Origin: a virus
Virus record (IMG/VR): IMGVR_UViG_3300025131_000548
Reading direction: 5' to 3' (one strand)
DNA length: 20,392 nt
The notes beneath the pieces were generated by a model that saw nothing but the letters and a program-made list of their open reading frames with translations, searched no databases and was not told where the DNA came from. Below are positions 1-15,883 of the stretch, one piece after another. The first letter of the stretch is position 1, and each line of letters begins with the position of its first letter. The translations under genes and the position numbers were made by a program.

Positions 1-615
1 GGTGCTGATGGCTATACTCCCCAAAAAGGAGTAGATTATTCTGACGGCGCTGCCGGCGCTGATGGTACTAATGGTACTAATGGTACTAATGGAGCTGATG
101 GTACTAATGGAGCTGATGGCTATACTCCCCAAAAAGGAGTAGATTATTCTGACGGCGCTGCCGGCGCTGATGGTACTAATGGTACTAATGGTACTAATGG
201 AGCTGATGGCTATACTCCCCAAAAAGGAGTAGATTATTCTGACGGCGCTGATGGTGCTGATGGTACTAATGGTTCTGATGGTTCTGATGGTGCTGATGGT
301 GCTGATGGTGCTGATGGTACTAATGGTTCTGATGGTTCTGATGGTGCTGATGGTGCTGATGGTGCTGATGGCTATACTCCCCAAAGAGGAGTAGATTATT
401 TTGATGGCGCTGATGGCGCTGATGGTGCTGATGGTGCTGATGGAGCTGATGGAGCTGATGGAGCTGATGGCTATACTCCCCAAAAAGGTACTGACTATTT
501 TGATGGCGCTACCGGCGCGACTGGTGCTGTCGGTGCTGATGGTATTGCTGGTACTGCTGGTACTAATGGTACTAATGGTACTAATGGAGCTGATGGAGCT
601 GATGGAGCTGATGGA
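1..615 (+). repeat. Coding tandem repeats: 9-nt units (ggtgctgat, ggtactaat, ggttctgat) plus five copies of a 36-nt module
   Basis: The module ggctatactccccaaa(a/g)agg... starts at 10, 118, 208, 370 and 469. A perfect 98-nt direct repeat spans 4-101 and 112-209. Confidence 0.95.
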
Positions 616-690
616 AATACACATCTTCTAAATCTCCAAAGTATGACATATGATAATGAAGGTTTTCTTGTTATACAAATTGCAACATAA
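1..690 (+). CDS. Collagen-like (Gly-X-Y) repeat protein, 5'-truncated; probable fibre or virion appendage
   Basis: Frame 1 is open from base 1 to TAA at 688-690. It reads GAD/GTN/GSD triplets interrupted by five G-Y-T-P-Q-(K/R)-G-(V/T)-D-Y-(S/F)-D modules and ends GNTHLLNLQSMTYDNEGFLVIQIAT. Not in the ORF track because its start is outside the window. Confidence 0.85.
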   Translation, partial: GADGYTPQKGVDYSDGAAGADGTNGTNGTNGADGTNGADGYTPQKGVDYSDGAAGADGTNGTNGTNGADGYTPQKGVDYSDGADGADGTNGSDGSDGADGADGADGTNGSDGSDGADGADGADGYTPQRGVDYFDGADGADGADGADGADGADGADGYTPQKGTDYFDGATGATGAVGADGIAGTAGTNGTNGTNGADGADGADGNTHLLNLQSMTYDNEGFLVIQIAT

Positions 691-1490
691 TGGAAACAAG
701 CTTAGTAGAATCAAACTCAAAACTTAGGGGTAACTTTATAGATTATAATTCTTTTCTTGAATTATCTTCGGAAACAAGAAGTACTCCTGTCAAGAGTTAT
801 GATCCTATTATTGATTTTGAAATATTTAGAGAATTAAAAGAAAGACTAAGACATGAACTAAAATCAAGAAAGGATAAAACTGAGCTTATGGGACTATCTG
901 CTTCTCAGATAGGTCTTCCTGTTAATGCAGTTTATATAGAAAGAAATGATAATTCTTCTGTATTATTAATTGATCCAAAATTAAAACCCAATACAAAGAA
1001 TGCATATCCAGAACTATTTATAAAATTAATTAAATGTCCAAACTCTCCAACTCCATATCATTTAGGATTATTTATAAAATCTGCTATAATAACGTCTACT
1101 ACAAGTAAACCATATATACTAGAAGAAGATCCGAATGATCCAACTTTTAAATTTTCTGCAAATTTACAAAGAATAATTTGGGCTTCTAATGGATTTCTTC
1201 CTGGAGATGACTCTCCTATTCCTATAAACTATTTTAAAGCATGCAATATACTAGAGAATTCCTCACAATTTAGAAAACATTTTAAATGTACTATACATAA
1301 AAGTGAGATCACTAGTATCTTAAAGCAACCATTTCTTTTTTATAGCCTTATTATGGATGATTTAATTATATATAAAAACAAAGTATCAGTTTTACATGAA
1401 AATATGCTAACCTTACTTGCACATAATATGAATAGTGACTGGATAAAATTACCCTCAATAAATCTATTTAAATCTAGGCTTATACTATAA
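690..1490 (+). CDS. Peptide deformylase-fold protein, probably catalytically inactive
   Basis: Colinear with PDF motifs: GLSASQIG (GxGLAAxQ), LLIDPKL (LINP), LIKCPNSP (EEGCLSIP), KPYILE (KPFELE), NLQRIIWASNGFL (CIQHEMDHLVGKL). HExxH is absent. TAATG overlap with the upstream gene. Confidence 0.7.
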   Translation: METSLVESNSKLRGNFIDYNSFLELSSETRSTPVKSYDPIIDFEIFRELKERLRHELKSRKDKTELMGLSASQIGLPVNAVYIERNDNSSVLLIDPKLKPNTKNAYPELFIKLIKCPNSPTPYHLGLFIKSAIITSTTSKPYILEEDPNDPTFKFSANLQRIIWASNGFLPGDDSPIPINYFKACNILENSSQFRKHFKCTIHKSEITSILKQPFLFYSLIMDDLIIYKNKVSVLHENMLTLLAHNMNSDWIKLPSINLFKSRLIL

Positions 1491-1493
1491 TAG

Positions 1494-1522
1494 TTGCATA
1501 GTATATATATTTTTCGTAAATT
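1494..1522 (+). promoter_or_regulatory. Putative sigma70-type promoter upstream of groES
   Basis: TTGCAT (1494-1499), a 17-nt spacer, then TAAATT (1517-1522), in one of the two longest intergenic gaps. The AT-rich background makes a chance match possible. Confidence 0.45.
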
Positions 1523-1546
1523 TAGGTACGAATAAAAATAAACTAT

Positions 1547-1552
1547 AGGAGA
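1547..1552 (+). promoter_or_regulatory. Shine-Dalgarno site of groES
   Basis: AGGAGA 7 nt upstream of the ATG at 1560. Confidence 0.75.
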
Positions 1553-1559
1553 ATTACCA

Positions 1560-1856
1560 ATGAGTTTTAAATTAAATCCAAAACAGAATAGGATAATAGT
1601 TTTACCAGATACGCCTTCCGATACCTCAGAAGGCGGAATTATTATACCTGACGGCGCAAAAGAACGTCCTAATGAAGCTATTGTTATTGCTGTTGGACCG
1701 GGTATATGGGAATCGTCTATAACGGACTATCGTGTACCTGACGTAGAGATTGGTGACAAAGTCATGTTTGCTAAGTATGCTGGTATAAAAATTAATGTAG
1801 ATGATGTAGACTATTTAATCATTAAAGAACCGGATATCATCGCATCATATAGTTAA
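1560..1856 (+). CDS. groES: Co-chaperonin GroES (Cpn10)
   Basis: 98 aa with PKQNRIIV, mobile loop SEGGIIIPDGAKERP, VIAVGPG, GDKVMFAKYAG and YLIIKEPDIIA. Confidence 0.95.
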   Translation: MSFKLNPKQNRIIVLPDTPSDTSEGGIIIPDGAKERPNEAIVIAVGPGIWESSITDYRVPDVEIGDKVMFAKYAGIKINVDDVDYLIIKEPDIIASYS

Positions 1857-2186
1857 ATGCCAAAACGACGCTGGACAACTACTAAAATTTTAAAAAATAT
1901 CTTGGATTTACCAGAGGATAAACGGTATTCTACGTATGTAAAGACTACTAATGGTGCACTCTGGAAAGCTGCTCAAAGACATTTTGGTTCTTGGAAAGAT
2001 GCTATTGAGGCAGCTGATATAAATTATGAGACGGTTGTTAAATGGGGACCTAGAAAAGCCTATAATAAAGGATCTGGAGGTTTTTGTACATTTCCTGGAT
2101 GTAGCAGAAGACATCATGCAAATGCTTTATGTCAACATCATGATAATATGATGAGATATAAACTAAAACTAGAACGACATACCTAA
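1857..2186 (+). CDS. Small basic putative nucleic-acid-binding protein (homing-endonuclease-associated repeat-like unit plus C3H Zn motif)
   Basis: LWKAAQRHFGSWKDAIEAA resembles the HNH-associated repeat consensus (xxxRxFGSWxxAxxAA). C-terminal CTFPGC-x9-CQHH. Confidence 0.5.
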   Translation: MPKRRWTTTKILKNILDLPEDKRYSTYVKTTNGALWKAAQRHFGSWKDAIEAADINYETVVKWGPRKAYNKGSGGFCTFPGCSRRHHANALCQHHDNMMRYKLKLERHT

Positions 2187-2197
2187 TATATATATCT

Positions 2198-2593
2198 ATG
2201 ATAGTGATTCATAACTATGCTGATGGTTCATTTTCACCAGTGCATTATCCTAGAAAATCTTTATCAGGTTATTTAGGTCAACAAGTTAGAAGCGTATTTG
2301 ATTTGGATAGCATAGAATCAATTAAAATAGAATTTGATATGATATTTGAATTTGAATTACCAAAAACAGTCCGAATAAACAGATTTATTAAAAATAAATT
2401 AAAATGCTACTTTGGAAAAACATATAGTGTTATAACAATGCCATCAGTTCAATTACAAATTGCCGAAACCGTCGATGCATCAGAGAATCTAGAAGCCGGA
2501 GATATTTTGTGGAAAGATATAATTGTTCTCCCTATTAAATTAGAAAGAGCTTTATTAAGATATATGGATAAATTTAAAGGATTTAAATCTTAA
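2198..2593 (+). CDS. Hypothetical protein
   Basis: 131-aa ORF in operon context, TAATG-coupled to the next gene. No recognised motif. Confidence 0.6.
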   Translation: MIVIHNYADGSFSPVHYPRKSLSGYLGQQVRSVFDLDSIESIKIEFDMIFEFELPKTVRINRFIKNKLKCYFGKTYSVITMPSVQLQIAETVDASENLEAGDILWKDIIVLPIKLERALLRYMDKFKGFKS

Positions 2594-3837
2594 TGCCTTA
2601 TCTCAGAAGACCAAAGAAAATAAGAACAAAAAAACCTGTAACAGGTGATCAGTCTGTACAACCTTTACCAGTTGTTCCTAGTACAATAACAGCTCTACCA
2701 GTAGACTTACAAATAGAACAATTAGAAAAAGAATATGATGATGATGTAAAATTAAATTTACTTGAAGCTGGAGAAGATAAATTAGATGAATTAGAGGAAA
2801 CCGTTAAAGAAAACTTAAAAGATATGGCTATTATTTTGGATCCTGAAAAGAATCGTATGTTAATTATTGCTGCTTCCCAATTAAAGCAAGAACCTACTGT
2901 AGTTATAGATTTTGAAATTATTGATAGAGCCATAGATATTGCTATGGATTCTTATATTCATCTTAATGGATTTGATCCTGTTTCTGCTATTATGGGTTTT
3001 TATGGAGCTGATGACAAAAATATGCCACTTGCTCCAATTCCCAGGGTGGCCATGGATTGTATTCAAATGCAAAATTTAGAAAATATACCTGATCCAGGCG
3101 ATTCTGATTTTGAATTGGATAATATTGATGAAGTGAATATAGAAACTCAAGAGTTTCAAATGATTGATATTTATAGAAAGTTATGGCTTATTTTTAAATA
3201 TTTTCCAGGAGAAAGTATTAAATCATTTTTACAAAAACTTATGCCGAAGAAAAAATGGTATACTAAATTAATACGTAGCTGTATTTCAAAAGCAATATCA
3301 TGGGTAGAATGTAATTTAATAAATCCAGCATATTTTATTCTTTTTGGTGAAGCTAGAACTTGCGGTGAAGATGTTAAATCTCCGGAAGAACAAGAAGCAG
3401 CTGGAGAAGATTATATGTATGCAGATGGTTCTTTAGATGGAACAGGTATGGATTGTATAGAAGCTTCCGCTACCATTATGCATTGGACTATGAAAAACAC
3501 AGCAGCTAGTATAGACGAAGCAAAGGATTTGAAAAGTTTATTGCATGTTAAAGAACAAAGAAGTAATCATGAAGCAAATAAATTTGCAACACTAAATCAT
3601 GCTATAAATAATAAGGACAGAGCAAAAAGTAGAATAAATAAGTTAAATGAATCTACAAAAAATATTCCTAGATATAAAAAGAGATTTTTTAATGCTCAGG
3701 ATAAGACTGGAAACTTTCCCTTATCTAATGGTGGGCTAAAGCTAGATATTCCTGTACCAGATGGGTCCATGGCTACAGATCCAACTTCTTCAGATATTTT
3801 CTTTGATTCTGGCGACAGTAACAGTGGCAATTACTAG
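2593..3837 (+). CDS. Hypothetical acidic protein with a basic N-terminus
   Basis: 414-aa ORF starting MPYLRRPKKIRTKKP, followed by D/E-rich sequence. No recognised family. Confidence 0.7.
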   Translation: MPYLRRPKKIRTKKPVTGDQSVQPLPVVPSTITALPVDLQIEQLEKEYDDDVKLNLLEAGEDKLDELEETVKENLKDMAIILDPEKNRMLIIAASQLKQEPTVVIDFEIIDRAIDIAMDSYIHLNGFDPVSAIMGFYGADDKNMPLAPIPRVAMDCIQMQNLENIPDPGDSDFELDNIDEVNIETQEFQMIDIYRKLWLIFKYFPGESIKSFLQKLMPKKKWYTKLIRSCISKAISWVECNLINPAYFILFGEARTCGEDVKSPEEQEAAGEDYMYADGSLDGTGMDCIEASATIMHWTMKNTAASIDEAKDLKSLLHVKEQRSNHEANKFATLNHAINNKDRAKSRINKLNESTKNIPRYKKRFFNAQDKTGNFPLSNGGLKLDIPVPDGSMATDPTSSDIFFDSGDSNSGNY

Positions 3838-3839
3838 GT

Positions 3840-4109
3840 ATGAAAAAAGAAAATTTCTATAGACGAGAGATATTTTTAGGAGAATATAGAGTTGAATGGG
3901 CAGATCAAAAAATAAGCTTAACTTGTATATGTGGACAAGAGGAAGTAGAAATATTTTCAGATACTTATTCTACCTGTCCTGCATGTAAAAGACGATTTTC
4001 TATTTTAGAATTAATTAAAGTGGAAGCATACCAAGAATATGATTCAAGTAGCGATCGAGATATTGGTAATACCCTTGATTATTTAGAATCAAATGATTGG
4101 AAATTATAA
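3840..4109 (+). CDS. Small Zn-ribbon protein
   Basis: CICG followed by CPAC in an 89-aa ORF. Confidence 0.6.
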   Translation: MKKENFYRREIFLGEYRVEWADQKISLTCICGQEEVEIFSDTYSTCPACKRRFSILELIKVEAYQEYDSSSDRDIGNTLDYLESNDWKL

Positions 4110-4121
4110 GGATTAATTATT

Positions 4122-4466
4122 ATGAGACAAAGTACATTAGACAAAATTAGAGCATTAAAGGCTAAGAAAAATGCTCAAGAACCTAAACTACTCATTGACT
4201 CCGAACTTCCAAGAAAAGATATAACTTATCTTGATGGAGACGTGTCTTCTGGGGCCATTACTGAACATGTTAATGAGAGAATAAATATTCTTATTAACAA
4301 TGCTGGAGGGTTAGATAAATATGAAGATAAAGGATTTAATATTATACCTATAACCCTCAAAAATGAAGTTAACACTACTCAGGATCCGTTTATAGAGGAG
4401 AATACAGATACTCGAGAAATTGTTAAACTAATGATAGTTATTGAATATGTTAAAAAAGAGAGTTAG
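4122..4466 (+). CDS. Hypothetical protein
   Basis: 114-aa ORF with an AAGGA SD-like sequence upstream. Confidence 0.6.
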   Translation: MRQSTLDKIRALKAKKNAQEPKLLIDSELPRKDITYLDGDVSSGAITEHVNERINILINNAGGLDKYEDKGFNIIPITLKNEVNTTQDPFIEENTDTREIVKLMIVIEYVKKES

Positions 4467-4468
4467 GA

Positions 4469-5113
4469 ATGAATAGAATAATTTTTATTACAGAAGAAAT
4501 ATATGGAACTGGTTCTTCTCCAGCCGATACAGAACCAATTATGCGTAGAATAGCTGAACACTTATTACTTTTAGAAAATAACGGTAATGCTCCTATACAT
4601 GTTTTTATAGATACTGAGGGAGGAAGTATAAAAACTGCTTTAAGTTTATTTGATCTTTTTAATAGCTGTAAATCTCCTATATATACATATGGACTATCAG
4701 AAGTCAGTTCTGCAGGTATTTTAGTATTTTTAGCAGGTAGCAAGAGATATGCTTTTTCCCATACTCAGTTTATGTCTCATCCTGGAACAATCTCAGCAAC
4801 AGCAAGCTCAGTAGACTTTGAGGCTACTGCTGGTGCTTTGCTTGACCAAGGATCAAAAGCAAATAAAATATTTAAAACTGTTCTAAAAATTAGTGAAAAA
4901 AAGTATAAAGAGTTACATACTAAAACAAATTATATATGGGCAGATGAGGCATTAAAACTTAAAATTGTAACTGAAATTTTAAATTCTTTTCCAAAAATAG
5001 AAAGTATAACAGAATCAGAATCAAAATTTTCAAGAAATGATATGGAATTAATTGATAAAGCTGTAACTTACTATAAAACATCTAAGCAACAATTTTTAAG
5101 TATGGAGAGCTAG
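4469..5113 (+). CDS. clpP: ClpP-family (peptidase S14) protease subunit-like protein
   Basis: IHVFIDTEGGS (INSPGG), VSSAG with S81, AGSKRYA, FMSHP with H104, and WADEALKLKIVTEI (AxEAxxYGLVD). Confidence 0.85.
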   Translation: MNRIIFITEEIYGTGSSPADTEPIMRRIAEHLLLLENNGNAPIHVFIDTEGGSIKTALSLFDLFNSCKSPIYTYGLSEVSSAGILVFLAGSKRYAFSHTQFMSHPGTISATASSVDFEATAGALLDQGSKANKIFKTVLKISEKKYKELHTKTNYIWADEALKLKIVTEILNSFPKIESITESESKFSRNDMELIDKAVTYYKTSKQQFLSMES

Positions 5114-5114
5114 A

Positions 5115-5483
5115 ATGCATTTAATTACATATATTGATGATCTTCCTCAGCCTGTTCGAGTCATGGCTAAGAATTTTTATGAAGCTGATAGGTTTGAACC
5201 TGAAATATTTGAAGTAACAAAATTAGAATATGATAACTTAGCAAATAGTGACGATGTAGTTACTCAATTATTATATTGGAGAGCTGAACATAAATTTTAT
5301 GCTGTTCTTGCGGGAGATGCTAAAAGAAAGGTACAATCACAAGAAATAATACACGATCCTTTTTATAAACCAACATCTTTACTAGCTTTTTATGAGGTTG
5401 GAGATGCTGATATAAGAGAATGGAAAAAGAAATATGGAAGACAAATGCTAGATCCCGATCATGCTTTGGAGATGTACGGATAA
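5115..5483 (+). CDS. Hypothetical protein
   Basis: 122-aa ORF starting 1 nt after the ClpP stop. Confidence 0.6.
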   Translation: MHLITYIDDLPQPVRVMAKNFYEADRFEPEIFEVTKLEYDNLANSDDVVTQLLYWRAEHKFYAVLAGDAKRKVQSQEIIHDPFYKPTSLLAFYEVGDADIREWKKKYGRQMLDPDHALEMYG

Positions 5484-5728
5484 TGTTTCCAGGAGGAAAA
5501 CAATCTCTACAAAAGTATTCAGACATGCGTTCATATTTATGTAATTTATATGATGATGGGGAATTAGATGTACTAAAAACAAAATATAAAGAAATTAATT
5601 CATTTGTTAAGATAAAAAAATTAATGGGCAATGATTGTGATTATCTTTTAAGTATATGTCAAGTTATATCAGCAAATGAATTGTTACTACACGAGTTACC
5701 TAATCCGCAAGGCGTGCATAAAAGATAA
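5483..5728 (+). CDS. Hypothetical protein (81 aa; start reassigned from 5420)
   Basis: ATG at 5483 is in frame with the 5420 ORF and forms a TAATG overlap like six other junctions. Reads MFPGGKQSLQKYSDMRSYLCNL... Confidence 0.55.
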   Translation: MFPGGKQSLQKYSDMRSYLCNLYDDGELDVLKTKYKEINSFVKIKKLMGNDCDYLLSICQVISANELLLHELPNPQGVHKR

Positions 5729-5733
5729 AAAGA

Positions 5734-6525
5734 ATGTCAAAAAATAATAAAACTGACATAACTAAACTGGATACGTCTGTTTCTAAAGAGCTAAAAGAAG
5801 CTCTAGATATAATAGGAAAAGGTACTAGTGTTAGATTAGCTGAACTACCTAAAGTTCCTGAGTTACAGCATATATTATCTGCTTTTCCAGAAGAGAAAAG
5901 AGACGATATAGTGCTGACAAGGCACCAGGTCGAGAAGCTATTGAAACATTTAAAGGTTTCTACATTTGGAGTTAGTAATACTCTACCTATGGTTTGTAGA
6001 AATAATGACTGCCCCGTTGCAGAGCTATGTATATTCTATAAAATGGGAATAGCTCCAGAAGGTGAAAGGTGCCCAGAAGAAATTATGTACATGGAACAGA
6101 TACTGCCACAGTTTATTAAAGATATGGGTGTTGATATGGAAAATTACCTAGAAGTAAGTATGGTTCAAGAATATGTTTCGTCTCTTTTAGATAAAAGACG
6201 AGCAGAAAGAATGATTGCTATTGAAGGAGATGTTAAAGAAGTCGCTACTACCGTCATACAGGCTACAGGAACTGTTATATATAATGAACAAGCAACTCCT
6301 TATACTGAAATAAAGGAGAAAGCAGCTAGAAGATTACAACAATTACGTAGAGAACTATTAGCTACTAGAGAACAAAGAGCCAAGTATAAACTTGCTGACG
6401 AAGGAGATCCATCAACTAGAGCTGCAGAGATGCGAGCAAAATTTGAACTATTACAAGCAAAAGAACAACAAGATAAAAAAGCCTTAGAGTCTTCTCTTGA
6501 TAAAGCATTTAAAGAGGTAGAATAA
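5734..6525 (+). CDS. Cys-cluster/coiled-coil protein; candidate terminase small subunit
   Basis: C-x4-C-x5-C-x13-C cluster and a helical C-terminal half (RRLQQLRRELLATREQRAK). Lies upstream of terL and no other obvious TerS is present. The function is inferred. Confidence 0.3.
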   Translation: MSKNNKTDITKLDTSVSKELKEALDIIGKGTSVRLAELPKVPELQHILSAFPEEKRDDIVLTRHQVEKLLKHLKVSTFGVSNTLPMVCRNNDCPVAELCIFYKMGIAPEGERCPEEIMYMEQILPQFIKDMGVDMENYLEVSMVQEYVSSLLDKRRAERMIAIEGDVKEVATTVIQATGTVIYNEQATPYTEIKEKAARRLQQLRRELLATREQRAKYKLADEGDPSTRAAEMRAKFELLQAKEQQDKKALESSLDKAFKEVE

Positions 6526-6526
6526 A

Positions 6527-7228
6527 ATGGCTGGATTTGTTGATGCTATAAAATATCTTAGAACACCACTTGATAAGGTACCTGGAACTAATATTTTAAG
6601 TAGTTCTACTATGCTTGGTAAAGTGGCAGCAGCTAGTGCTCTAGCCGGAGTTGGAGTTGGAGCAGTAGTATCACGAGGGATGGGAGGATCTTCTAATTTA
6701 CCTGCTAGGACTAGTAGACATGAGCGTTTAACTTATGAAGATATAAATTCTAGAGGCTTTTGGAATAAACAAAAAACTCTGACGGGTATGTCTCTCATGT
6801 CAGAGCAGGGAGTGAGAGGTTATCTTGGATATGCTGCAGGTGAAGCTGTAGCAACATTTACTGGACCCTATGCAAACAAAGGTATGCTAGCAGGAGGCTT
6901 AGCTGGGGGTGCTGCATCATTAGGTGCATTGGCTTTTATTAAACCATCCTGGAAAAAAGCCGGCGGTGTCGTTGCAGCGGCGGTCGGATCCGGAGCTGTT
7001 TTAGGAGGAATTACAGCAAGAAAAGTTCAGCTTGCAGTTGCCGAATCATTTAATACAGTTCAAAAGAATTTATATAAAAAACCAATGTTTTCAAACAAAG
7101 CAAGAGGAGTTGGGCCTGGTTATAGATTATGGGCTCAACGCACAACAATGGGAAAGCCAGGACATCTAGGCGTAACAGGAAGTTTACCTTTTGCAATGCA
7201 TTCAGCTAGACATAAGAGTACCGTTTAA
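6527..7228 (+). CDS. Gly/Ala-rich basic protein with glycine-zipper-like hydrophobic segments; possible virion or membrane protein
   Basis: Segments VAAASALAGVGVGAVV, GMLAGGLAGGAASLGALAFI and GGVVAAAVGSGAVLGGI; few acidic residues. Confidence 0.5.
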   Translation: MAGFVDAIKYLRTPLDKVPGTNILSSSTMLGKVAAASALAGVGVGAVVSRGMGGSSNLPARTSRHERLTYEDINSRGFWNKQKTLTGMSLMSEQGVRGYLGYAAGEAVATFTGPYANKGMLAGGLAGGAASLGALAFIKPSWKKAGGVVAAAVGSGAVLGGITARKVQLAVAESFNTVQKNLYKKPMFSNKARGVGPGYRLWAQRTTMGKPGHLGVTGSLPFAMHSARHKSTV

Positions 7229-8364
7229 TGCCTGCTCAAAAAAATATAAGTAAATTAAGTGCTTATTTGACAGAAGTAGCAGGTGGTGGTTATTTAGGTG
7301 GATTAGGACTAGGCTCTGCAACTTTAGCTCTTGAAAGCTCTCCAGCTGGCATTTCATCATTAGATTTAATGCCAAGCCCACTTACTGCACCTTTATGGGG
7401 TGCTTTTATGACCCCTGTTCGAGCAGCAAGTATTCTAAATCCTTTTTCAGGAGAGGGAACTGGTACAAGAGGCTATGGAATATTTAACAGACAAGCCAAA
7501 ATACCATACGCTAACCCCATAATGGCGGGTCAGTTTGGGCTGAGTTTTGATGCGTCAGGGGCGAAGATAAGAACAGGAAGAAATTTTCAAAAAGCCTTCC
7601 CATTCCTTGGTCCCAAAACGGAATTTTATCGAAAACTAAAGTCAATTGAATATGGCGGGCCAATAGGTTTTAGAACTTTATTAACTGGAATGCCTGACAA
7701 GATGGGAATAAAACAAGGGTTTGCGTTAGGTTCAAGACTTTCTATAGGTAATATGGTTTTATCTGCAACTGAATCTGTAGGCCATGCAGCTATATCTGCT
7801 GGCTGGGAAGCTCCAATGTTTAGAACAATGAGGCATGCTAAATCTTTAGGCTTAGCAGGAATGCTAAATCTGGTTGATGATGCAGATTTTTTAAGTAAAA
7901 CTCCAGATAAATTGAAGTCTGCCTGGTTATATAAATTGGCCGGTGTTGATCCTAAAACACTAAAAGTTGGCGCTGAGATTACGTATGCAAAAGGAGTTAG
8001 TAAGTTTGCTCCCAAAATAACTGAGGTTGGTAAACTGGCACTTGGAGCTGGCGGTGCTGCTAAAGCATTTGCTACTGCTGCGGCTGGTTTTTCTTTATAT
8101 ACATATTTAGATCTTATGAGCGGGGCTGTAAAATTTACAGCAGATACTTTTGTAAAAGGAATAGGCGGATTAGCTGTTAGTATAAATCAATGGTTAGACG
8201 AACGAAAAGGATTAGAATTAGGATATGGAAGACTTCCTACTGCTATGATATCTTCGGCCGCAGCGACTGAAAGACAAAGAGCAGTTCGAGCTTCTTATGG
8301 AGCAAAAATAAATCCAAGAAATAGATTAATGGGAAATGAAGCAACTTATCACCATACGAGATAA
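7228..8364 (+). CDS. Gly/Ala-rich basic protein; possible virion or membrane protein
   Basis: 378 aa with GGGYLGGLGLG and LALGAGGAAKAFATAAAGFSL segments. TAATG-coupled to the preceding gene of similar composition. Confidence 0.5.
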   Translation: MPAQKNISKLSAYLTEVAGGGYLGGLGLGSATLALESSPAGISSLDLMPSPLTAPLWGAFMTPVRAASILNPFSGEGTGTRGYGIFNRQAKIPYANPIMAGQFGLSFDASGAKIRTGRNFQKAFPFLGPKTEFYRKLKSIEYGGPIGFRTLLTGMPDKMGIKQGFALGSRLSIGNMVLSATESVGHAAISAGWEAPMFRTMRHAKSLGLAGMLNLVDDADFLSKTPDKLKSAWLYKLAGVDPKTLKVGAEITYAKGVSKFAPKITEVGKLALGAGGAAKAFATAAAGFSLYTYLDLMSGAVKFTADTFVKGIGGLAVSINQWLDERKGLELGYGRLPTAMISSAAATERQRAVRASYGAKINPRNRLMGNEATYHHTR

Positions 8365-8367
8365 TTA

Positions 8368-8532
8368 ATGGGAGTTACTGTAGAAAAGAGACAACATGAG
8401 TCTGTTGGGGCATTAATAAAAAGATTTACAAAACAGGTTCAAAAATCTGGGTTAATGGAAGAACTAAGATATCGTGAATTTTATGTAAAACCGTCTTTAA
8501 GAAAAAAATATCCAAAGAAGAAGATATGGTAA
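8368..8532 (+). CDS. rpsU: Phage-encoded ribosomal protein bS21 (54 aa; not in the ORF track)
   Basis: MGVTVEKRQHESVGALIKRFTKQVQKSGLMEELRYREFYVKPSLRKKYPKKKIW matches the bS21 pattern V-x5-E-S-x3-L-x-R-F-x6-G-x7-RE(F/Y)YxKPS. Confidence 0.9.
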   Translation: MGVTVEKRQHESVGALIKRFTKQVQKSGLMEELRYREFYVKPSLRKKYPKKKIW

Positions 8533-9284
8533 TCTCTAAAAAACAACTTCTCCTAACAAATAATGGAGAAATAGTATTATCAAAAAATTTAAAAGATAAG
8601 AATATTTTTTGGTGGAATGGAACTACATATAAACCTATACGAGTTATAGATGTAAAAGATTCAAAAGTAAATTTACATAAATTTATAACATCTCAAGGTC
8701 GTATAATAAACTGTCCTTTTAATACCAATTTTTTAGGAAATCCTAATTCCTCGTGGGTAAATTATTCTAAATTTAAAGACTTATCAATTCAATCAGTTCC
8801 GGGAGCTTCTAAAAAAACTACAGTAGCAGTGCTGGGGTACTTAAAGATTTTTGGAGACTCGTGGAAGAATAAATTAGATATAGATTGTTTAAAAAGCTCT
8901 TTTTATTTATTCCAGAATAAAAGACCAAATCCCTATACTAAATTAAATATAACATTAGCATTATCAAAATTAGCTGAATCCGATTTAAAATATGTTTTAA
9001 AACCTTTTCTTTCTGAAAAGATAATAAAACATCTAACTTCGTTTAGTAAAGATTTTCTCATAATGTTACTTAGTAGATTAGGTATTGCAGCTAATGGCCA
9101 TAGTGATCACTGTCCCTTAACCGAACCAGGAACAATAAGATTTAAAGGAAGTTTAACAGAACCTTTAAAATATGAAAATTTGAGATATGCTGGAAAAATA
9201 AATGAACCAGCTATAAAAATCCGTACAGAATTTCCCACAGATAATTTATTAATAGGTAGCTTTATATGCCAGACTCCAAGTTAA
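8526..9284 (+). CDS. Free-standing degenerate intein-like protein (Hint-N, decayed LAGLIDADG-like core, Hint-C)
   Basis: VISKKQLLLTNNGEIVLSKNLK is in register with intein block A (CLPRDTQVVKENGTSVSIDKLK of the adjacent TerL intein). GRIINCPFNTNFL...W sits at block B. LGYLKIFGD and TSFSKDFLIMLLSRLGI resemble DOD blocks C and H. The ending NLLIGSFICQT resembles block G. Confidence 0.6.
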   Translation: MVISKKQLLLTNNGEIVLSKNLKDKNIFWWNGTTYKPIRVIDVKDSKVNLHKFITSQGRIINCPFNTNFLGNPNSSWVNYSKFKDLSIQSVPGASKKTTVAVLGYLKIFGDSWKNKLDIDCLKSSFYLFQNKRPNPYTKLNITLALSKLAESDLKYVLKPFLSEKIIKHLTSFSKDFLIMLLSRLGIAANGHSDHCPLTEPGTIRFKGSLTEPLKYENLRYAGKINEPAIKIRTEFPTDNLLIGSFICQTPS

Positions 9285-11605
9285 CTAAAGACGATTTATT
9301 AGAAGTACAAATTCTTAGTGATCCAGTTTACTTCGCGGAAATTTATCTTCGTTCGCCTTCTGATCCTAAAAAATCTCTAGAACTTCGTCCTTATCAGAAA
9401 AAGATTTTACGTAGTAGAGCACAGAAGAGAGTTCTTAGAATGGGAAGAAGAACTGGAAAATCTGTTACATTAGCAATTGAAGCTATATGGAAAGCTTTTA
9501 CTTATACTGATAGAGAAATTTTAATTGTGGCTGGATATGATTCTCAAGTTCAAACTTTATTTAATCTTATTAATAGAATGACTAAAGATGCTCCTGAAAT
9601 TTCATCGTCTATAGCACGTACTAGAATGCGTCCTTATGAAATTTGGTTTAAAAATAATTCTGTAATACAGGGCTATGTCGGAAATAATTCAGTTCGTGGT
9701 AAATGTCTTCCTAGAGATACTCAAGTTGTAAAAGAAAATGGAACCTCTGTATCAATTGATAAATTAAAGGTTGGAGATGAAGTATTATCTATAGATTTAG
9801 AAACAGAAAAAAGTATTGTTGGAACAGTAGAAGCAATACACGATAATGGTATTAAGGAATTATATGAAGTTGAAACAGCTTCTGAAAGATTTCTAGTTGC
9901 TACTGCAAATCATAAAGTAATGACAATGGGCAGGGGATGGGCAGAAATTCAACAACTATATACTCAAGAAAAAGTTGATAGAGAGGCTGATTTTGTTTCT
10001 GTTGTTCATCCTAATGGAAAAGCATATTGGTCAAGAGTTAAAAGAGTAACAAAGCTTTCTCTGAAAAAAAGAACATTTGATTTAACAGTAACTCCCTCTC
10101 ATACATTTGTTGCCTATAAGAAAAATTCTAATAGTAAAGGAGCAGTAGCTGCCGGACCTTCTATAACTTCAGGTCAAAAAATAGAAGAAGGATTAGCTCC
10201 AGGAGGATTTTTAGTTCATAATTCAGCCAATGATTTATATATAGATGAGGTTGATTCTTTAACAAATGAGGCACTTGTTGAAGCTGTATTACCTATTTCT
10301 ACAACATATAAAGATACTAATCTTACAATATCAGGAACTCCAACAGGTAAAAGAGAATATTTTTATAACATTGTAAAACAACAAAAAGATCTTGGCTTCA
10401 ATGAATATTTTTTTCCATCCATGGTTAGCCCCGAATGGAATAAAGATAGAGAATTAGAATTAAAAGCAGTTACAACTGTTACACAGTTTGAACATGAATA
10501 TTTAGCACTATTTGGTACAGCTGCTGAAGGAGTTTTTAAAAATAATTTTATTGACTCAAATTTATATGTATATTCTTATTCTTCTCTTAGATACAATCCA
10601 GAAAATATTTATGTATTAGGAGTAGATTGGAATGAATCTAGATTTGGAGTTCAAGCAGTTGTTTTAGAGTATATGAATATTCCTGATTTATTAATACCTT
10701 ATAATGATGGAGAATGGAAAACACCAGATGGAGAATTAATTAATAAGATTGAAAAATCAAATGCTCTTAGAGTATTTTATGCCGATGCTATAGATCCTGC
10801 AGACTTTACTAATATGGGATCAGTAGAATTTATTTTAAAACTAATGAAAAAAATCAAATTTAATAAAATGGTTTTTGATCGTGGGCACGGTGAGGCAAAT
10901 TATGAAATGCTTAGACTTTCATTAGATAAGGGTGAAGGTCCCATGGGTACAAAGTGTACAAATATGAAGTATATGTTAGATAATATGGCATCAGTTGACA
11001 TGGGAGGATCTACGGAAATCATAGATAAGATCACAGGGATAGCAAGAAAAACTCCTACAAAAAATACAATGGTAAAAAATTTACAATTATTAAATGAAAG
11101 TGGACAGCTTATAATTCCTGCAGTTGATCTAAAAGGAAATACTGTAGAAAATGAAGAATTCAATTTAGTTGGCCAAATGAGAGGATATATTATCGATAGA
11201 GTTGGTAGATATGGAGAAGTTTATGCATCTACTGTACGCGATGGTCTAGACCATAGACTTGATGCTACAATGTTGGCCGCGTATGGTTATATGATGGATA
11301 CTTCAATTTTTCATAAAAGAGATATGGATGTAGTAATAGATAATGTTCCAGGACTTGAATTAGCTTTTACTAAAGGAGGTTGGAGATCTAATTTAGAAAA
11401 AATAAAAGATGTACCTAAAGTTTCTTCATTATCTGGAGCATTACTTTATGATCATGGATTTTGGAGTGGGGAAGGAGAGCCTCCTGAATATACACTAGAT
11501 AAAAATGGAACTCCTAAAAAAGTAGGAAGTAGATCAGTAAAGAGTAGAGGATTTTCCCATAAATCAAGAACATTAACTAGAAGTACTAAAGGGAGAAGTT
11601 TCTAA
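9266..11605 (+). CDS. terL: Terminase large subunit precursor containing a mini-intein
   Basis: LRPYQ adenine-binding motif, Walker A MGRRTGKS, Walker B LYIDE, coupling motif ISGTP, and nuclease motifs LGVDW, FDRG and DHRLDA. About 606 aa after splicing. Confidence 0.95.
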   Translation: MPDSKLTKDDLLEVQILSDPVYFAEIYLRSPSDPKKSLELRPYQKKILRSRAQKRVLRMGRRTGKSVTLAIEAIWKAFTYTDREILIVAGYDSQVQTLFNLINRMTKDAPEISSSIARTRMRPYEIWFKNNSVIQGYVGNNSVRGKCLPRDTQVVKENGTSVSIDKLKVGDEVLSIDLETEKSIVGTVEAIHDNGIKELYEVETASERFLVATANHKVMTMGRGWAEIQQLYTQEKVDREADFVSVVHPNGKAYWSRVKRVTKLSLKKRTFDLTVTPSHTFVAYKKNSNSKGAVAAGPSITSGQKIEEGLAPGGFLVHNSANDLYIDEVDSLTNEALVEAVLPISTTYKDTNLTISGTPTGKREYFYNIVKQQKDLGFNEYFFPSMVSPEWNKDRELELKAVTTVTQFEHEYLALFGTAAEGVFKNNFIDSNLYVYSYSSLRYNPENIYVLGVDWNESRFGVQAVVLEYMNIPDLLIPYNDGEWKTPDGELINKIEKSNALRVFYADAIDPADFTNMGSVEFILKLMKKIKFNKMVFDRGHGEANYEMLRLSLDKGEGPMGTKCTNMKYMLDNMASVDMGGSTEIIDKITGIARKTPTKNTMVKNLQLLNESGQLIIPAVDLKGNTVENEEFNLVGQMRGYIIDRVGRYGEVYASTVRDGLDHRLDATMLAAYGYMMDTSIFHKRDMDVVIDNVPGLELAFTKGGWRSNLEKIKDVPKVSSLSGALLYDHGFWSGEGEPPEYTLDKNGTPKKVGSRSVKSRGFSHKSRTLTRSTKGRSF
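9704..10222 (+). mobile_element. Mini-intein (173 aa, TerL residues 147-319) without an endonuclease domain
   Basis: Junctions SVRGK|CLPRDT and GGFLVHN|SANDLYIDE; block B TANH; block F RTFDLTV. Removing it restores RGKSANDLYIDE. Confidence 0.93.
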
Positions 11606-13776
11606 TGCCTGACGAACAATGGGTAGAAGATCTTAGATCAGAGCTTGATGATGCTGCAATTGCAGAATTGTCTAGCTTTTTCGATCGAATAGAACAACAC
11701 ACTACCCAACAGGGCAGAAATGAAACTAAATGGAGAGACCCAATTGCAGCATTAAAAAATAGAATACAGTCAGATGTTGCTGGTGATTCTAAAGTGAGTT
11801 CGGCTGCAAGATGGAAGGCTTTAACTTCTAAAATGTCTTCTTATGTTAGAAATGCTGCAAATTCTTTATATCCTCTAAATCCAATTTCACATAATAAAGG
11901 AACATTTCTTCCAATTAAATTTCAAGAGCTAAGAGACTTAATAAGTGGCTCAGCTTTTAATAATATTGTAATAGTAACTGATCCTGGAGATTCTAGTCTT
12001 GAAGGAGGAGATAAACTTGAAAAGGAAAAACTAGAAAATATTAATAAAGATTTAAAAACACGCAATAAAACCGAAGTTAGTTGGGTTAATCCCGAACCAG
12101 CCACTATGCTCTTCTCATATGATGATACTAATCCTTTCAGATTAGAAGATGCTGAATTAACTGGAGGAAAGAAACTTTATTTAGGTTTTCCAAAACTAGG
12201 TTTAGCATTTGATAAAACTATACAAGATAAACAGGACTTAGCAAATAATCCAAATGGTGGCGTTAAGTCTGCTGTGTTTTCTATAGAAACTAGTAGTATT
12301 ACATTGGAAGATAATATTTTAACAGTCTATTTTAAAGAAGAAAATTTACAAGAGATAAAGTCAGAATGGGCAAGTTTAATATCAGTCCCACTTAATGATT
12401 CTTCTAAAGATACTCACTTTATACTTGTTGGAAGATATGTATCTTTAGAAGACGCAGATCTAGATGGATATAAAAAGAATTTAATAGAAGGGGCTAAGAC
12501 TTATGGAGCTAATGGAATCTCTGATATGATTAACGGAGTTGGCGAGGCAATAGGAGGTTCTATCGATAGCATGGCTACCAAAGAATTTTATTGTTGTATC
12601 TTCTATGAATTAATACGCAGCTCTACCATAGCAGGGGTAACAGATGCTAAAATATATAAAGTGGACTCTGGAGGTAATATAATAATACGGACCAGATATG
12701 ACACTGTATCTGAATACGAGGCAGCATTTGCTGCTGGAGATCCAATAACTTTAGAAGAACTCTTAGAAAATCCAGCTATCTCTACACAGCATATAGAGAT
12801 GTTTTTAGAAGAACAGAGAATATGGCTTAGACAGCTACATGCTCTGCTAATGGCTTTAATTCCCTTATTAACTGGAGATTCTATGAATTTCAATTGGGAA
12901 GGATTTAAATTTAACATAGCAGCTATAATGCATACTTCAATAACTATAATGCTGGTTACAATGTTAAATGTTGTTCAACAGCATCTATTTGAACAAGCTG
13001 TACAATGGGGAAAAGAAAGAATAGAAGCATCGGATAATCCAAGTGTTGTCGCCCAATGTTTACCGTGGGAACAATTATTTATGTCACTTATAGTTGCTTT
13101 ATTTGGTCCAGATGGTTGGTCAAAAAATGTTAGAGAAATGATACTAAATATGCAAGACTATATGATGAAAAAAGCAAAAGAAGTTGCTGGTGAAGGAGAA
13201 GATGCATCAGTTACTGGAGAAAATCATCCATGGTTACCTAAGCTTAATGCAGCTATAGATGTTATAGAATGGTTATTAGATTTAAATGCACAAGCTTTTA
13301 TGATTTGTGCAACTCAAAGACCAGATAAGTATGAAGCCGATTCCGGAGCTGGGTCTGCTTCCGATTCTTCCAAGAATAAAGAGACTGGAGGACCATATGA
13401 ACCTTTTCCAACATCATCAACTATTGGAAGACGAACAGGAACAGGTCTTGAATATACAGACGGACGTGGTACTGTTGATATTAAAAAAACTTCTGATACA
13501 GGAGATGGGTCTAAAGATGGTTCATTTTACTCTCCTACAGGGGGCCTAGGCCGCCAGATTGACATAACTGGTGAGAAGATCAATCCCGTTTCTCTCTTAA
13601 TTGAGCAAAAAGATGAGGACGTGGCTAAATTTTTTGCACAATATATGGGTTTAACTCAAGAAGAAGCAAATGAAGCTGTAAGTAAGGCGAAAAAAGGAGA
13701 ATGTGTAAAAGCTTTAGGCGCCGATGAGATACAAGAACTTAAAAATGCTCTAACTAATGTAGGACTAGAATACTAA
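11605..13776 (+). CDS. Large hypothetical protein between terL and portal; probable virion-associated protein
   Basis: 723 aa, TAATG-coupled at both ends, acidic, with a hydrophobic helical block (LHALLMALIPLL...ITIMLVTMLNVV...LFMSLIVALFG). Confidence 0.6.
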   Translation: MPDEQWVEDLRSELDDAAIAELSSFFDRIEQHTTQQGRNETKWRDPIAALKNRIQSDVAGDSKVSSAARWKALTSKMSSYVRNAANSLYPLNPISHNKGTFLPIKFQELRDLISGSAFNNIVIVTDPGDSSLEGGDKLEKEKLENINKDLKTRNKTEVSWVNPEPATMLFSYDDTNPFRLEDAELTGGKKLYLGFPKLGLAFDKTIQDKQDLANNPNGGVKSAVFSIETSSITLEDNILTVYFKEENLQEIKSEWASLISVPLNDSSKDTHFILVGRYVSLEDADLDGYKKNLIEGAKTYGANGISDMINGVGEAIGGSIDSMATKEFYCCIFYELIRSSTIAGVTDAKIYKVDSGGNIIIRTRYDTVSEYEAAFAAGDPITLEELLENPAISTQHIEMFLEEQRIWLRQLHALLMALIPLLTGDSMNFNWEGFKFNIAAIMHTSITIMLVTMLNVVQQHLFEQAVQWGKERIEASDNPSVVAQCLPWEQLFMSLIVALFGPDGWSKNVREMILNMQDYMMKKAKEVAGEGEDASVTGENHPWLPKLNAAIDVIEWLLDLNAQAFMICATQRPDKYEADSGAGSASDSSKNKETGGPYEPFPTSSTIGRRTGTGLEYTDGRGTVDIKKTSDTGDGSKDGSFYSPTGGLGRQIDITGEKINPVSLLIEQKDEDVAKFFAQYMGLTQEEANEAVSKAKKGECVKALGADEIQELKNALTNVGLEY

Positions 13777-15539
13777 TGGCTAGATTCACTTTTCCATTTT
13801 TTGGTAAGAGTAAAACTTTAGAAGAAAAAGTTAATGATATTCTTACTAAACGAAATCGAAAGATTGAACAGTTAGCATATGCCCAAACTGCAGATGCAAC
13901 TACAAAATCAAATAGTATATCAAATATTTTAAAAGCACTTAAATCTAAAGTCTTAAGTGTAATTGCAGGCGGTAATCGAGGTATATTTATTACTCCTGAA
14001 TGGGACTTCAAAAAAGTACAACTTGCTTTTACTAATGAATCAATATTTAGACGATCAGTAGAAAAGTATGTAGAACAAATTAGAAAACATTCTTGGGAAT
14101 TTATAGGCAATAACCCCACTACGGTAGAGTATATAAGAAAAAGATTTAATCAAATGGCTATCGTTACTAATAAACCGACCGCTGAACTTTTTGATGAAAT
14201 TACTTTTAATATGGTATTATACTCTAATAGTATAATTACTAAACAGAGAAATAGAAAAGCTTCAGGAGGTAAAGAAAGAAAATCTTTTGATGGATTTACT
14301 AGAGTTCCTGTTGCGGGATATCAACCAGTTGATCCAAGTTCTGTTAAAGTAGATAGAGATAATTACGGAAATATAAGAAAGTGGAAACAAATTTCTGGAC
14401 AAAATCCAAGCAAACCTAAAGATCCTGCTTTTACACAATTCCTAATTAATAAGCCTCCACCCGGTATAAAGGATCCAGAATGGAGTCCTTATAATGTTAT
14501 TCATATTAAAGACAGAAGTGCCACTCCTTCGATGTTCTTTTTTTCAATGCCTATGTCAGTACCTGTTATTGCAGACATGGAAGCTCTTAGAGAATTAGAA
14601 GAATTATCTTTACTGGAATCAATTAAAGTTGCAATTCCTAAGTTACATGCTAAAGTAGGAAGTAAAGAGCAACCAGGTACACAAGAGCAGGTTGATGATT
14701 TAGCTTCAACTATTCAAAGTTTAACTGGTGATGGCGTATTAGTAACTTCAGAACGAGTATCAGTAGAAGATATAGCTAAAGCAACTAATGCTAATAATAT
14801 ATTAACTTCTTCTATAAATTATTTTAAAGCTAGAGTTTTAGCTGGTTTGGGAATGTCAGGAGTAGCTATGGGAGAAGGAGATTCAGCAAATCGTGCAACA
14901 GCTCAAGTAATTAGTTCTGAAATGCAGAGTACATCGGCAAAGTTTCAGCGTATTCTGAAAAATTCTATAGAATTTTTTATGATTACAGAATTATTATATG
15001 AATCAGGTTATACCGAATTTACTTTAAATGATGAGAATATGGTTTACTTGTCTATTCCTGAAGTTGATCTATCAGAGAAGATTAAAAGAGAAGCACATCA
15101 ACTTAATCTTTATATTAATAATGCTTTGACTGAGGAAGAATTACGAAAAGAATTAGGTAGAGATATTATTCTTCAACTAGAAAGAGAAGCAATGTATCTT
15201 AATAGAGTACAGATTCCTTTAGCAGAAGCTAAAGCATCTGCACTATCAGAGGCAGGTGAGAATTTGTCTAGTAATGTTTCTAGACCAACTAATCAACAAG
15301 GAACTCAACTATCTAAACCTAGCGTAACTAGAGATTATTATACTGAATTATGGAATCAGGCCTTAGGGACGCAAACTGTTATAGAGCTCGAAGATCTACT
15401 TACCGGGTCTAAGTTGGACCCGTATGACATAACTACTATGAAAATTATGTTACGAAGGCACTCTAATGGAGGTAACTTTAAAGAAGTAATAGGAACTGTT
15501 TTCGATACATTAGAAGCACAAATTATAAAGGATGCTTAA
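13776..15539 (+). CDS. Portal protein
   Basis: 587 aa between terL and the prohead protease, with portal-like segments FNMVLYSNSII, PVDPSSVKVDRD, VIHIKD, LAGLGMS..MGEGDSANRATA and NALTEEELRKELG. Confidence 0.85.
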   Translation: MARFTFPFFGKSKTLEEKVNDILTKRNRKIEQLAYAQTADATTKSNSISNILKALKSKVLSVIAGGNRGIFITPEWDFKKVQLAFTNESIFRRSVEKYVEQIRKHSWEFIGNNPTTVEYIRKRFNQMAIVTNKPTAELFDEITFNMVLYSNSIITKQRNRKASGGKERKSFDGFTRVPVAGYQPVDPSSVKVDRDNYGNIRKWKQISGQNPSKPKDPAFTQFLINKPPPGIKDPEWSPYNVIHIKDRSATPSMFFFSMPMSVPVIADMEALRELEELSLLESIKVAIPKLHAKVGSKEQPGTQEQVDDLASTIQSLTGDGVLVTSERVSVEDIAKATNANNILTSSINYFKARVLAGLGMSGVAMGEGDSANRATAQVISSEMQSTSAKFQRILKNSIEFFMITELLYESGYTEFTLNDENMVYLSIPEVDLSEKIKREAHQLNLYINNALTEEELRKELGRDIILQLEREAMYLNRVQIPLAEAKASALSEAGENLSSNVSRPTNQQGTQLSKPSVTRDYYTELWNQALGTQTVIELEDLLTGSKLDPYDITTMKIMLRRHSNGGNFKEVIGTVFDTLEAQIIKDA

Positions 15540-15883
15540 TGGAACACAACTATCTGGAGTTTAGATGTCCACAATGTGGTTCTTTATTATGTAAGTATGT
15601 TGATCAAGAAAAACCATATGCAGTTGAAATCAAATGTCAGAAAAGAGGTTGCTCTACAATTAATATTAGGGCAAACTGTGTTCCTACTAATTTATTAGAA
15701 TTAAGGTGTCAGCACATTGATGAAAAGAAATCAGAAAAATGGGGATCAACAACTATGTGTAATAAACTATTATCTAAGATTGTTCCAGGAACAAATATAG
15801 AAATTAAGTGCCCTAGGTGTAAAAATATGACAAGAAGTTTAGAGCAATTTCCAGCCTTACTACCAGAGACTACAAATGAGTAA
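15539..15883 (+). CDS. Tandem Mu Com-like zinc-ribbon protein
   Basis: Two units: EFRCPQCGSLLCK...EIKCQKRGC and ELRC...CNKLLSK...IEIKCPRC, matching the Com-family pattern RCxxCxKLL...EIKCPRC. Confidence 0.7.
   Translation: MEHNYLEFRCPQCGSLLCKYVDQEKPYAVEIKCQKRGCSTINIRANCVPTNLLELRCQHIDEKKSEKWGSTTMCNKLLSKIVPGTNIEIKCPRCKNMTRSLEQFPALLPETTNE

Follow-up and report, generated by a model that had tools for sequence, protein, structure and literature searches.

A short, basic-tailed ribosomal protein bS21 encoded in the head-assembly operon of an uncultured marine phage lineage

The stretch of viral DNA analysed here (IMG/VR record IMGVR_UViG_3300025131_000548; 20,392 nucleotides, called the window throughout) is, judged by its gene content, a block of phage morphogenesis genes that all point in the same direction, with a gene for the ribosomal protein bS21 inside its head-assembly operon. 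The features that matter for the argument are the following, where SD stands for Shine-Dalgarno, anti-SD for its complement in 16S rRNA, and Ser+n for the nth residue after the serine of the K-P-S motif.

1560 to 1856, plus strand: GroES co-chaperonin (PHROG 3188, E 1.8e-21; Cpn10 in the public gene calls)
4469 to 5113, plus strand: ClpP-like prohead protease (PHROG 94 and PHROG 1684; CLP_protease in the public gene calls)
7228 to 8364, plus strand: 378-aa gene, hypervariable between strains and a conserved neighbour of bS21, no family match
8362 to 8370, plus strand: upstream junction made of TAA, a 3-nt spacer and the bS21 ATG, without a good SD (best anti-SD pairing upstream of the start at 8368, -3.0 kcal/mol; sequence and duplex energies)
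8368 to 8532, plus strand: phage bS21 gene, 54 aa (open reading frame, PF01165 above cut-off, PHROG 21469, AlphaFold model)
8488 to 8496, plus strand: codons of K41-P42-S43, the motif that closes the bS21 core (alignments; the HMMER alignment to solved bS21 spans the motif)
8497 to 8529, plus strand: C-terminal domain L44-W54, 11 residues, net charge +6, Tyr at Ser+5 and Trp at Ser+11 (lengths, charges, lineage alignment)
8526 to 8532, plus strand: 7-nt overlap in which the Trp54 codon gives the TG of the next gene's ATG (sequence)
8526 to 9284, plus strand: 252-aa gene, conserved between bS21 and TerL, no family match
9266 to 11605, plus strand: large terminase, TerL, with an intein (Pfam Terminase_6N, Intein_splicing and Hint; PHROG 2 and PHROG 5989)
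13776 to 15539, plus strand: portal protein (PHROG 9232, E 7e-35)
19196 to 20392, plus strand: major capsid protein, cut by the window end (the full 450-aa gene on contig L094 matches PF25209, Phage_capsid_4)

The open reading frame at 8368-8532 is a genuine bS21 gene, and its modelled product has the fold of solved bS21 chains. The frame runs from an ATG to a TAA, ends in the C-terminus that the first-pass annotation had quoted, and is not extendable because the TAA of the upstream gene lies 3 nt before its ATG. Its product scores 44 bits with Pfam Ribosomal_S21 (PF01165), whose cut-off is 27 (E 1.8e-11), with residues 5-53 aligned over profile positions 2-50 of 55, and matches PHROG 21469, 'ribosomal protein S21' (E 1.2e-8); in HMMER searches it matches 24 distinct solved bS21 sequences. 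Alignment with family members shows F20, G28, E32, R36, K41, P42 and S43 to be invariant or near-invariant, with K41 and P42 the same throughout alignments A1 and A3 and S43 almost so. An AlphaFold model that was given a 30-sequence alignment as input has a mean pLDDT of 81 and predicts helices at residues 13-27, 29-37 and 42-45. The 17 best PDB matches of this model are all bS21 or mS21 (mitochondrial), with TM-scores of 0.63-0.71 and rmsd values of 1.5-2.4 Å; owing to the small size of the protein, the corresponding Foldseek E-values, at 0.09-1.8, are weak. The 54-aa bS21 that had been proposed at this position is thus borne out by the frame, by the Pfam and PHROG profiles and by the solved chains, including the Pfam search that had been suggested as a check. 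Its description as unannotated is correct for the list of open reading frames from which the first-pass annotation worked and incorrect for the public gene calls, which list a 54-aa gene on every contig examined.

The gene is tightly packed between its neighbours. The 3-nt spacing to the upstream stop suggests translational coupling and, since the gene in addition overlaps the next start, bS21 is most likely made with the virion proteins. The overlap between Trp codon and ATG is also found in most of the related lineages; it is absent in G002 and G006, where the next start lies 26 nt downstream and the Trp is still kept. The gene does not stand directly beside the terminase, as had first been thought, but is separated from TerL by the 252-aa gene. 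Searches with Pfam and PHROG profiles gave no match for the 252-aa gene and none for the 378-aa gene. Both have a place in the lineage: homologues of the 252-aa gene with 28-51% identity fill the same slot in L103, L105, G002 and G003, and homologues of the 378-aa gene precede bS21 in G002 and G003. Indeed, the slot as a whole is kept in relatives in the order 344-378-aa gene, bS21, gene of about 250 aa, TerL, in genomes whose bS21 proteins are 42-75% identical and whose portals are 62-64% identical to those of the window. It is present on 91-93-kb contigs with a 52-aa bS21 allele, in L105 with a 54-aa allele at 72% identity, in L103 and L104 with 55-aa forms at about 45% identity, and in five IMG/VR records with portals that are 62-64% identical. 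Between strains that are otherwise about 99.7% identical, the 378-aa gene reaches 90-93% identity over only part of its length. The same behaviour is seen for the two genes directly upstream of bS21 taken together (6527-7228 and 7228-8364), which are hypervariable, being 80-93% identical, with indels and only partial alignment, whereas all other genes from the protease to the Com-like gene are 97-100% identical between strains. The intein of TerL (Hint and Intein_splicing) occupies about residues 144-283, and it is probably old in the lineage since relatives at 58-61% identity have kept the same TerL length (779-785 aa).

By sequence similarity, this is a lineage of uncultured marine tailed phages without a close cultured relative, and its head genes distantly resemble those of Bacillus phage 0305phi8-36. 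The portal is 27-32% identical to the portals of 0305phi8-36 and its relatives, the capsid protein is 24-31% identical to capsid proteins of jumbo myophages, and the two together are 24-32% identical to their counterparts in 0305phi8-36, Moorella phage MTATph1 and Acinetobacter phage ME3. Searches for cultured relatives with blastn and tblastn against the INPHARED phages gave nothing at E 1e-3, and with E up to 5 only a bS21 of the PA5oct type plus a few weak matches. The exact 54-aa protein is found on 55 contigs, GCA_002998485.1 (an assembly from the eastern tropical North Pacific oxygen-deficient zone) being among its holders, and the DNA of window positions 5000-14900 is present in 17 marine or seawater metagenome runs. 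Three metatranscriptomes contain small shares of its sequence words (0.06-0.12), which is neutral as to expression. CheckV rates related records of 68-71 kb as about 37% complete, so genome sizes well above 90 kb are possible; in the two longest related records that come with DNA (70.6 and 68.1 kb), all genes are structural, giant ones included. Runs of giant proteins (1683-3938 aa) lie downstream of the tail genes at 6040-40320 in G002 (L126-L129) and at 30968-67647 in G003 (L131-L133), and the window's own contig carries the start of a giant protein of 2685 aa. On L099, a block of sugar-modification genes (1-7105) lies upstream of the head module and encodes GT92-like and GT8 glycosyltransferases, a SPASM protein, a B12-binding radical-SAM enzyme, a cytidylyltransferase and a cupin; marine metagenomes contain over 1000 homologues of the radical-SAM enzyme, the nearest of them 64-77% identical to it.

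The C-terminal tail is where the phage protein departs from most of its family. Only 11 residues follow KPS, compared with a median of 24 in 144 family representatives drawn from an exhaustive HMMER search, of which only two have a shorter tail. Cellular tails from 80 genomes, among which the search pattern favoured Bacillota, have a median of 15 and a minimum of 10 residues. At 54 aa, the whole protein compares with 71 aa in E. coli and 57 aa in B. subtilis, where the short form is a working protein, and it falls 3-4 residues short of the smallest cellular forms that have been studied well. In many E. coli ribosome entries, only 51-56 of the 71 bS21 residues are modelled. On these sequence comparisons, phage bS21 is truly at the short end of the family, but it is not devoid of a domain that is universal in bS21. 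The tail itself has a pI of 10.7, a net charge of +6 and no acidic residue, and comparable tails are a property of the lineage: all 13 members examined are 52-58 aa long with a basic tail (pI 10.3-12, net charge +5 to +8), and all 13 have a Trp at Ser+11, followed by 0-4 further residues. The K-I-W ending is confined to the present subclade, as the other subclades carry 1-4 residues beyond the Trp. Thus the first-pass annotation was right that the protein is shorter than that of E. coli, and the tail is indeed among the shortest of the family. It is, however, not a plain C-terminal truncation, and a loss of function is not to be assumed, because its basic residues form a stretch that the lineage has conserved, with an invariant Trp at the end.

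The pattern of substitution indicates that bS21 is under purifying selection. Comparison with the L105 allele gives a dN of 0.22 and a dS of 2.3, hence a dN/dS of about 0.1, a ratio that is approximate as it comes from one pair of alleles with saturated dS. The short tail is the most constrained part of the protein, since the last 21 codons show 14 nucleotide differences from L105 and only 2 amino-acid changes; all remaining amino-acid changes fall within the first 33 residues. At a shorter evolutionary distance, the bS21 DNA is identical and its frame intact on 16 loci, from strains whose other DNA differs by about 0.3%, apart from the two genes directly before bS21. In most lineages the Trp codon contributes to the downstream ATG, which partly confounds the conservation of this residue. 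That the invariant Trp is solely a by-product of the overlapping ATG was considered and rejected, as G002 and G006 keep the Trp where there is no overlap.

SD-like sites precede 10-11 of the 22 starts in the window, and 10 of the 22 reach an anti-SD pairing energy of -5.4 kcal/mol or better, as against 15% of 540 control ATGs (Mann-Whitney p 0.001). On the 42-kb contig, an SD-like motif, typically GGAGA 6-9 nt upstream, is present at 23 of 43 starts. SD-like sites are therefore not limited to a few genes such as those first named (groES, decoration and major capsid genes), and their frequency is as expected for an ordinary SD-reading host. In any host that uses SDs, the highly expressed genes are expected to have the stronger ones. 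As to which host this is, neither bS21 similarity nor the other genes of the window gave evidence for a member of the Bacteroidota. The nearest cellular bS21 sequences are at most 50% identical and spread over unrelated phyla. A scan of species genomes with a single pattern that favours Bacillota gave as its best match L009, an ordinary cellular rpsU of 64 aa with 41-47% identity; a profile search ranks Clostridia next after the phage lineage, and the protein-atlas matches are to Chloroflexota and a candidate-phyla-radiation (CPR) group. We take this scatter of sequence similarity as no host signal. The remaining genes are similarly uninformative: the GroES atlas matches are viral clusters, the radical-SAM homologues are almost all marine metagenome proteins, no tRNA gene was found on the six loci searched and no Rfam family reached threshold. 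All DNA runs with the phage are bulk marine metagenomes, with no single-cell genome among them.

The core of bS21 binds 16S rRNA on the platform of the 30S subunit, next to the anti-SD. From the sequence features described above, we regard it as probable that the phage produces a functional bS21 along with its virion genes and uses it on host ribosomes. Co-translated with the head genes, as the tight junctions imply, the protein would exchange into, or complete, host 30S subunits late in infection, and the subunits that carry it would bias translation initiation towards phage messages. The protein has kept the whole core, and its tail is compressed to 11 basic residues ending in Trp. There are precedents for parts of this scheme: a pelagiphage bS21 enters E. 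coli 70S ribosomes and can compete with the host protein (PMC6375957), and phage bS21 genes within structural regions show late expression (PMC9723584). By analogy with a cellular protein, so short a tail might bind the ribosome weakly. The bS21 of F. johnsoniae is largely lost from ribosomes when its whole C-terminal region is missing (PMC9976891), and since the fully tail-less protein is largely absent from ribosomes, this analogy argues that the 11 retained residues serve to keep the phage protein bound.

A more specific scenario starts from the finding that the handling of SD sequences by the ribosome is determined by the part of bS21 that follows KPS (PMC7797042, PMC9976891). Sequestration of the anti-SD by bS21 is specific to Bacteroidota (PMC7797042, PMC9976891), and the host would have to be one of these: the short phage bS21 would replace the host's, free the anti-SD and favour SD-led late phage genes. 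The attraction of this scenario, which we nonetheless consider unlikely, lies in the bS21 of F. johnsoniae (Jha et al. 2021, PMC7797042; McNutt et al. 2023, PMC9976891), a protein of the same family with the same core, 64 aa long, with a weakly basic tail whose Tyr54 and Ile55 contact the 3' tail of 16S rRNA. Tail mutants of this protein raise translation of a strong-SD reporter, 5-fold with ribosomes lacking the bS21 C-terminal region (deltaC) and 3-fold with Y54A, and deltaC ribosomes initiate clearly more poorly on SD-less mRNAs (PMC9976891; structure in PMC7797042). In the HMMER register (phage residues 8-48 on residues 7-47 of chain 7jil_z), the Tyr54 position is Ser+12, and the phage protein ends with its Trp at Ser+11, the equivalent of position 53 and hence one residue before, although a shift by one residue is possible. 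It would also fit that the bS21 gene itself has no good SD and that SD-like sites precede 21 of 35 structural-region genes against 2 of 8 upstream sugar-modification genes. However, the latter difference is not significant (Fisher p = 0.12) and would be expected anyway in an SD-reading host. In addition, neither bS21 similarity nor the other genes point to a Bacteroidota host, and two features of the Bacteroidota system are lacking in the phage: the tail is strongly basic (pI 10.7, net +6) where the Bacteroidota tail is described as weakly basic (PMC7797042), and the gene is preceded by an anti-SD pairing of -3.0 kcal/mol where Bacteroidota rpsU, flavobacterial rpsU included, has an exceptionally strong upstream SD, below -13 kcal/mol (PMC9976891). 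Moreover, the invariant Trp could do the stacking job of Tyr54. The first-pass annotation had interpreted the protein along these lines, as a shortened bS21 that changes SD usage in favour of phage genes; its premises of a phage bS21 in the structural module and of a very short tail stand, while the weakly basic tail and the strong upstream SD of the Bacteroidota type are absent. A variant that we hold to be similarly doubtful is that the minimal bS21 (52-58 aa), through its compressed basic tail, puts an invariant Trp where the Bacteroidota Tyr locks the 16S 3' tail, and that anti-SD handling is thereby altered, the anti-SD being either freed or held differently, in favour of SD-led virion genes and at the expense of host messages. 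If true, the phage protein would parallel in nature the tail mutants of F. johnsoniae bS21 that were made in the laboratory.

bS21 is a late-assembling and exchangeable ribosomal protein, and the main rival to selective initiation on phage messages is a plain boost in capacity. Extra bS21 could complete 30S subunits that are poor in bS21 in a slow-growing oligotrophic host, which would raise overall initiation during the burst of virion protein synthesis and leave mRNA preference unchanged. This is possible, if on balance improbable: the bS21 gene does travel with helpers of protein production such as GroES and the ClpP-like protease, and the complete rRNA-binding core is conserved, but a lineage-specific and strongly constrained tail suggests a specialised function, and ribosomes with the pelagiphage bS21 are only about 5% active in an E. 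coli system (PMC6375957), a hint that phage forms do not simply stand in for the host's own bS21. It is also conceivable that the protein no longer enters ribosomes and has become an RNA- or DNA-binding factor, for example in the regulation of head and terminase genes or in packaging. The gene is embedded among head and packaging genes and, in all relatives examined, comes immediately before the gene upstream of TerL; this place and a tail much shorter than in nearly all cellular bS21 would accord with such a role, and bS21 partners outside the ribosome have been reported (PMC12054373). We consider this very unlikely, however, as the residues conserved in the lineage are precisely the core positions of the family (F20, G28, E32, R36 and K41-P42-S43), the predicted fold matches that of ribosome-bound bS21, and the protein has no other domain or motif. 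Finally, so short a protein, with a tail among the shortest of its family, could be taken for a decaying or truncated passenger gene without function. A dN/dS of about 0.1, a frame that is intact on 16 loci, and a length and tail features that have persisted in lineages with portals almost 40% different make this extremely improbable, and a pseudogene or truncation was rejected on the dN/dS, the intact frames and the conserved tail.

Phage bS21 proteins are already well documented, in aquatic, huge, Bacteroidota and cultured Pseudomonas jumbo phages, and a survey of 2019 found that bS21 makes up 88% of virus-encoded ribosomal proteins, with 90% of bS21 detections being aquatic (PMC6375957). 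The bS21 of HTVC008M and other aquatic phages (Mizuno et al. 2019, PMC6375957) resembles the present one as a marine phage-borne gene under purifying selection for which the same replacement of host bS21 in the 30S subunit has been proposed. However, the HTVC008M protein has 67 aa and is 54% identical to that of its host, whereas the present one has 54 aa, and its identity to the cellular bS21 proteins found does not exceed about 50%; moreover, HTVC008M has another phage backbone, in contrast to the distantly 0305phi8-36-like head genes here. In large freshwater Bacteroidota phages (Chen et al. 2022, PMC9723584), bS21 likewise lies within a conserved region of TerL, capsid, protease and portal genes, and its C-terminal region is conserved within clades and has an aromatic residue near the Tyr54 position. 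In those phages, however, bS21 is on the opposite strand, is Bacteroidota-like and comes with hosts backed by CRISPR spacers, whereas here it is co-oriented and probably translationally coupled, gives no host signal, has a strongly basic tail and ends at the aromatic residue. Since it shares its strand with every neighbouring gene, it falls outside the five clades of Chen et al. Among cultured phages, the Pseudomonas jumbo phage PA5oct and its relatives have an annotated bS21 that is 50% identical over residues 2-39 and that also adjoins protein-quality-control genes (ClpX and a heat-shock protein), but it has 68 aa with a 22-residue tail, no terminal aromatic residue and a place outside the head module.

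Among cellular proteins, the closest parallel to the end of the tail is found in E. coli. The last 13 residues of E. coli bS21 are resolved only in a 2-Å structure, in which the final R-L-Y touches helix h37 and A1167 in the head of the 30S subunit, with the Tyr stacking on A1167 (Watson et al. 2020, PMC7550191). Both tails are basic and both end in a basic, an aliphatic and an aromatic residue (K-I-W here, R-L-Y there), but the E. coli tail has 28 residues and the 11 of the phage are probably too few to follow the same path. Similarly, the long tail ending in [RK]-L-Y that marks gamma- and betaproteobacterial bS21 (about 28 residues) and extends to the 30S head is not what the phage has. What sets this gene apart is the co-oriented and tight packing in a head operon, the undescribed marine lineage and the compressed, Trp-bearing tail, and all three are differences of degree. 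For now, the gene is one further example of a known phenomenon. Yet bS21 is the commonest ribosomal protein encoded by viruses, and the present protein is a compact natural variant in which the core is intact and only 11 residues, all strongly conserved, are left of the part of bS21 that experiments have shown to control the response to SD sequences. Should a host come to light, model ribosomes given this protein, or its tail alone, could show directly whether a phage bS21 alters mRNA selection.

Several observations on the surrounding DNA and on the wider family are added here. Directly after the portal gene, the window encodes a Com-like zinc-ribbon protein (15539-15883; 73-77% identity in relatives). 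Com of phage Mu is a translational activator, and by analogy the Com-like protein may belong to the same translation-related theme as bS21. At 15-393, a 19-nt hairpin-forming unit together with the same 10 nt occurs in four copies (at 15, 123, 213 and 375); the repeat lies inside the open frame at the left end and looks like a coding tandem repeat. Sites resembling sigma-70 promoters are no more frequent than in shuffled sequence. A 12-nt motif, TGACATAACTTA, occurs between genes and upstream of SD-led genes on L099 (at about 5585 and 7112) and on L094 (at about 15830 and 17470), and it may be a phage promoter or regulatory site; the window contains no exact copy of TGACATAACTTA, and near-matches in it are not above chance. 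Another marine phage contig with a tape-measure gene nearby, L106, encodes a 55-aa bS21 ending in Trp (10001-10168) with the same 7-nt stop/start overlap with the next gene; the two may be distantly related, or the arrangement may have arisen by convergence. Lastly, the bS21 core is not always single: some database proteins (P0009, P0010, P0068 and P0287) contain at least two bS21 cores in tandem, and one protein of 1652 aa has four bS21-like stretches.
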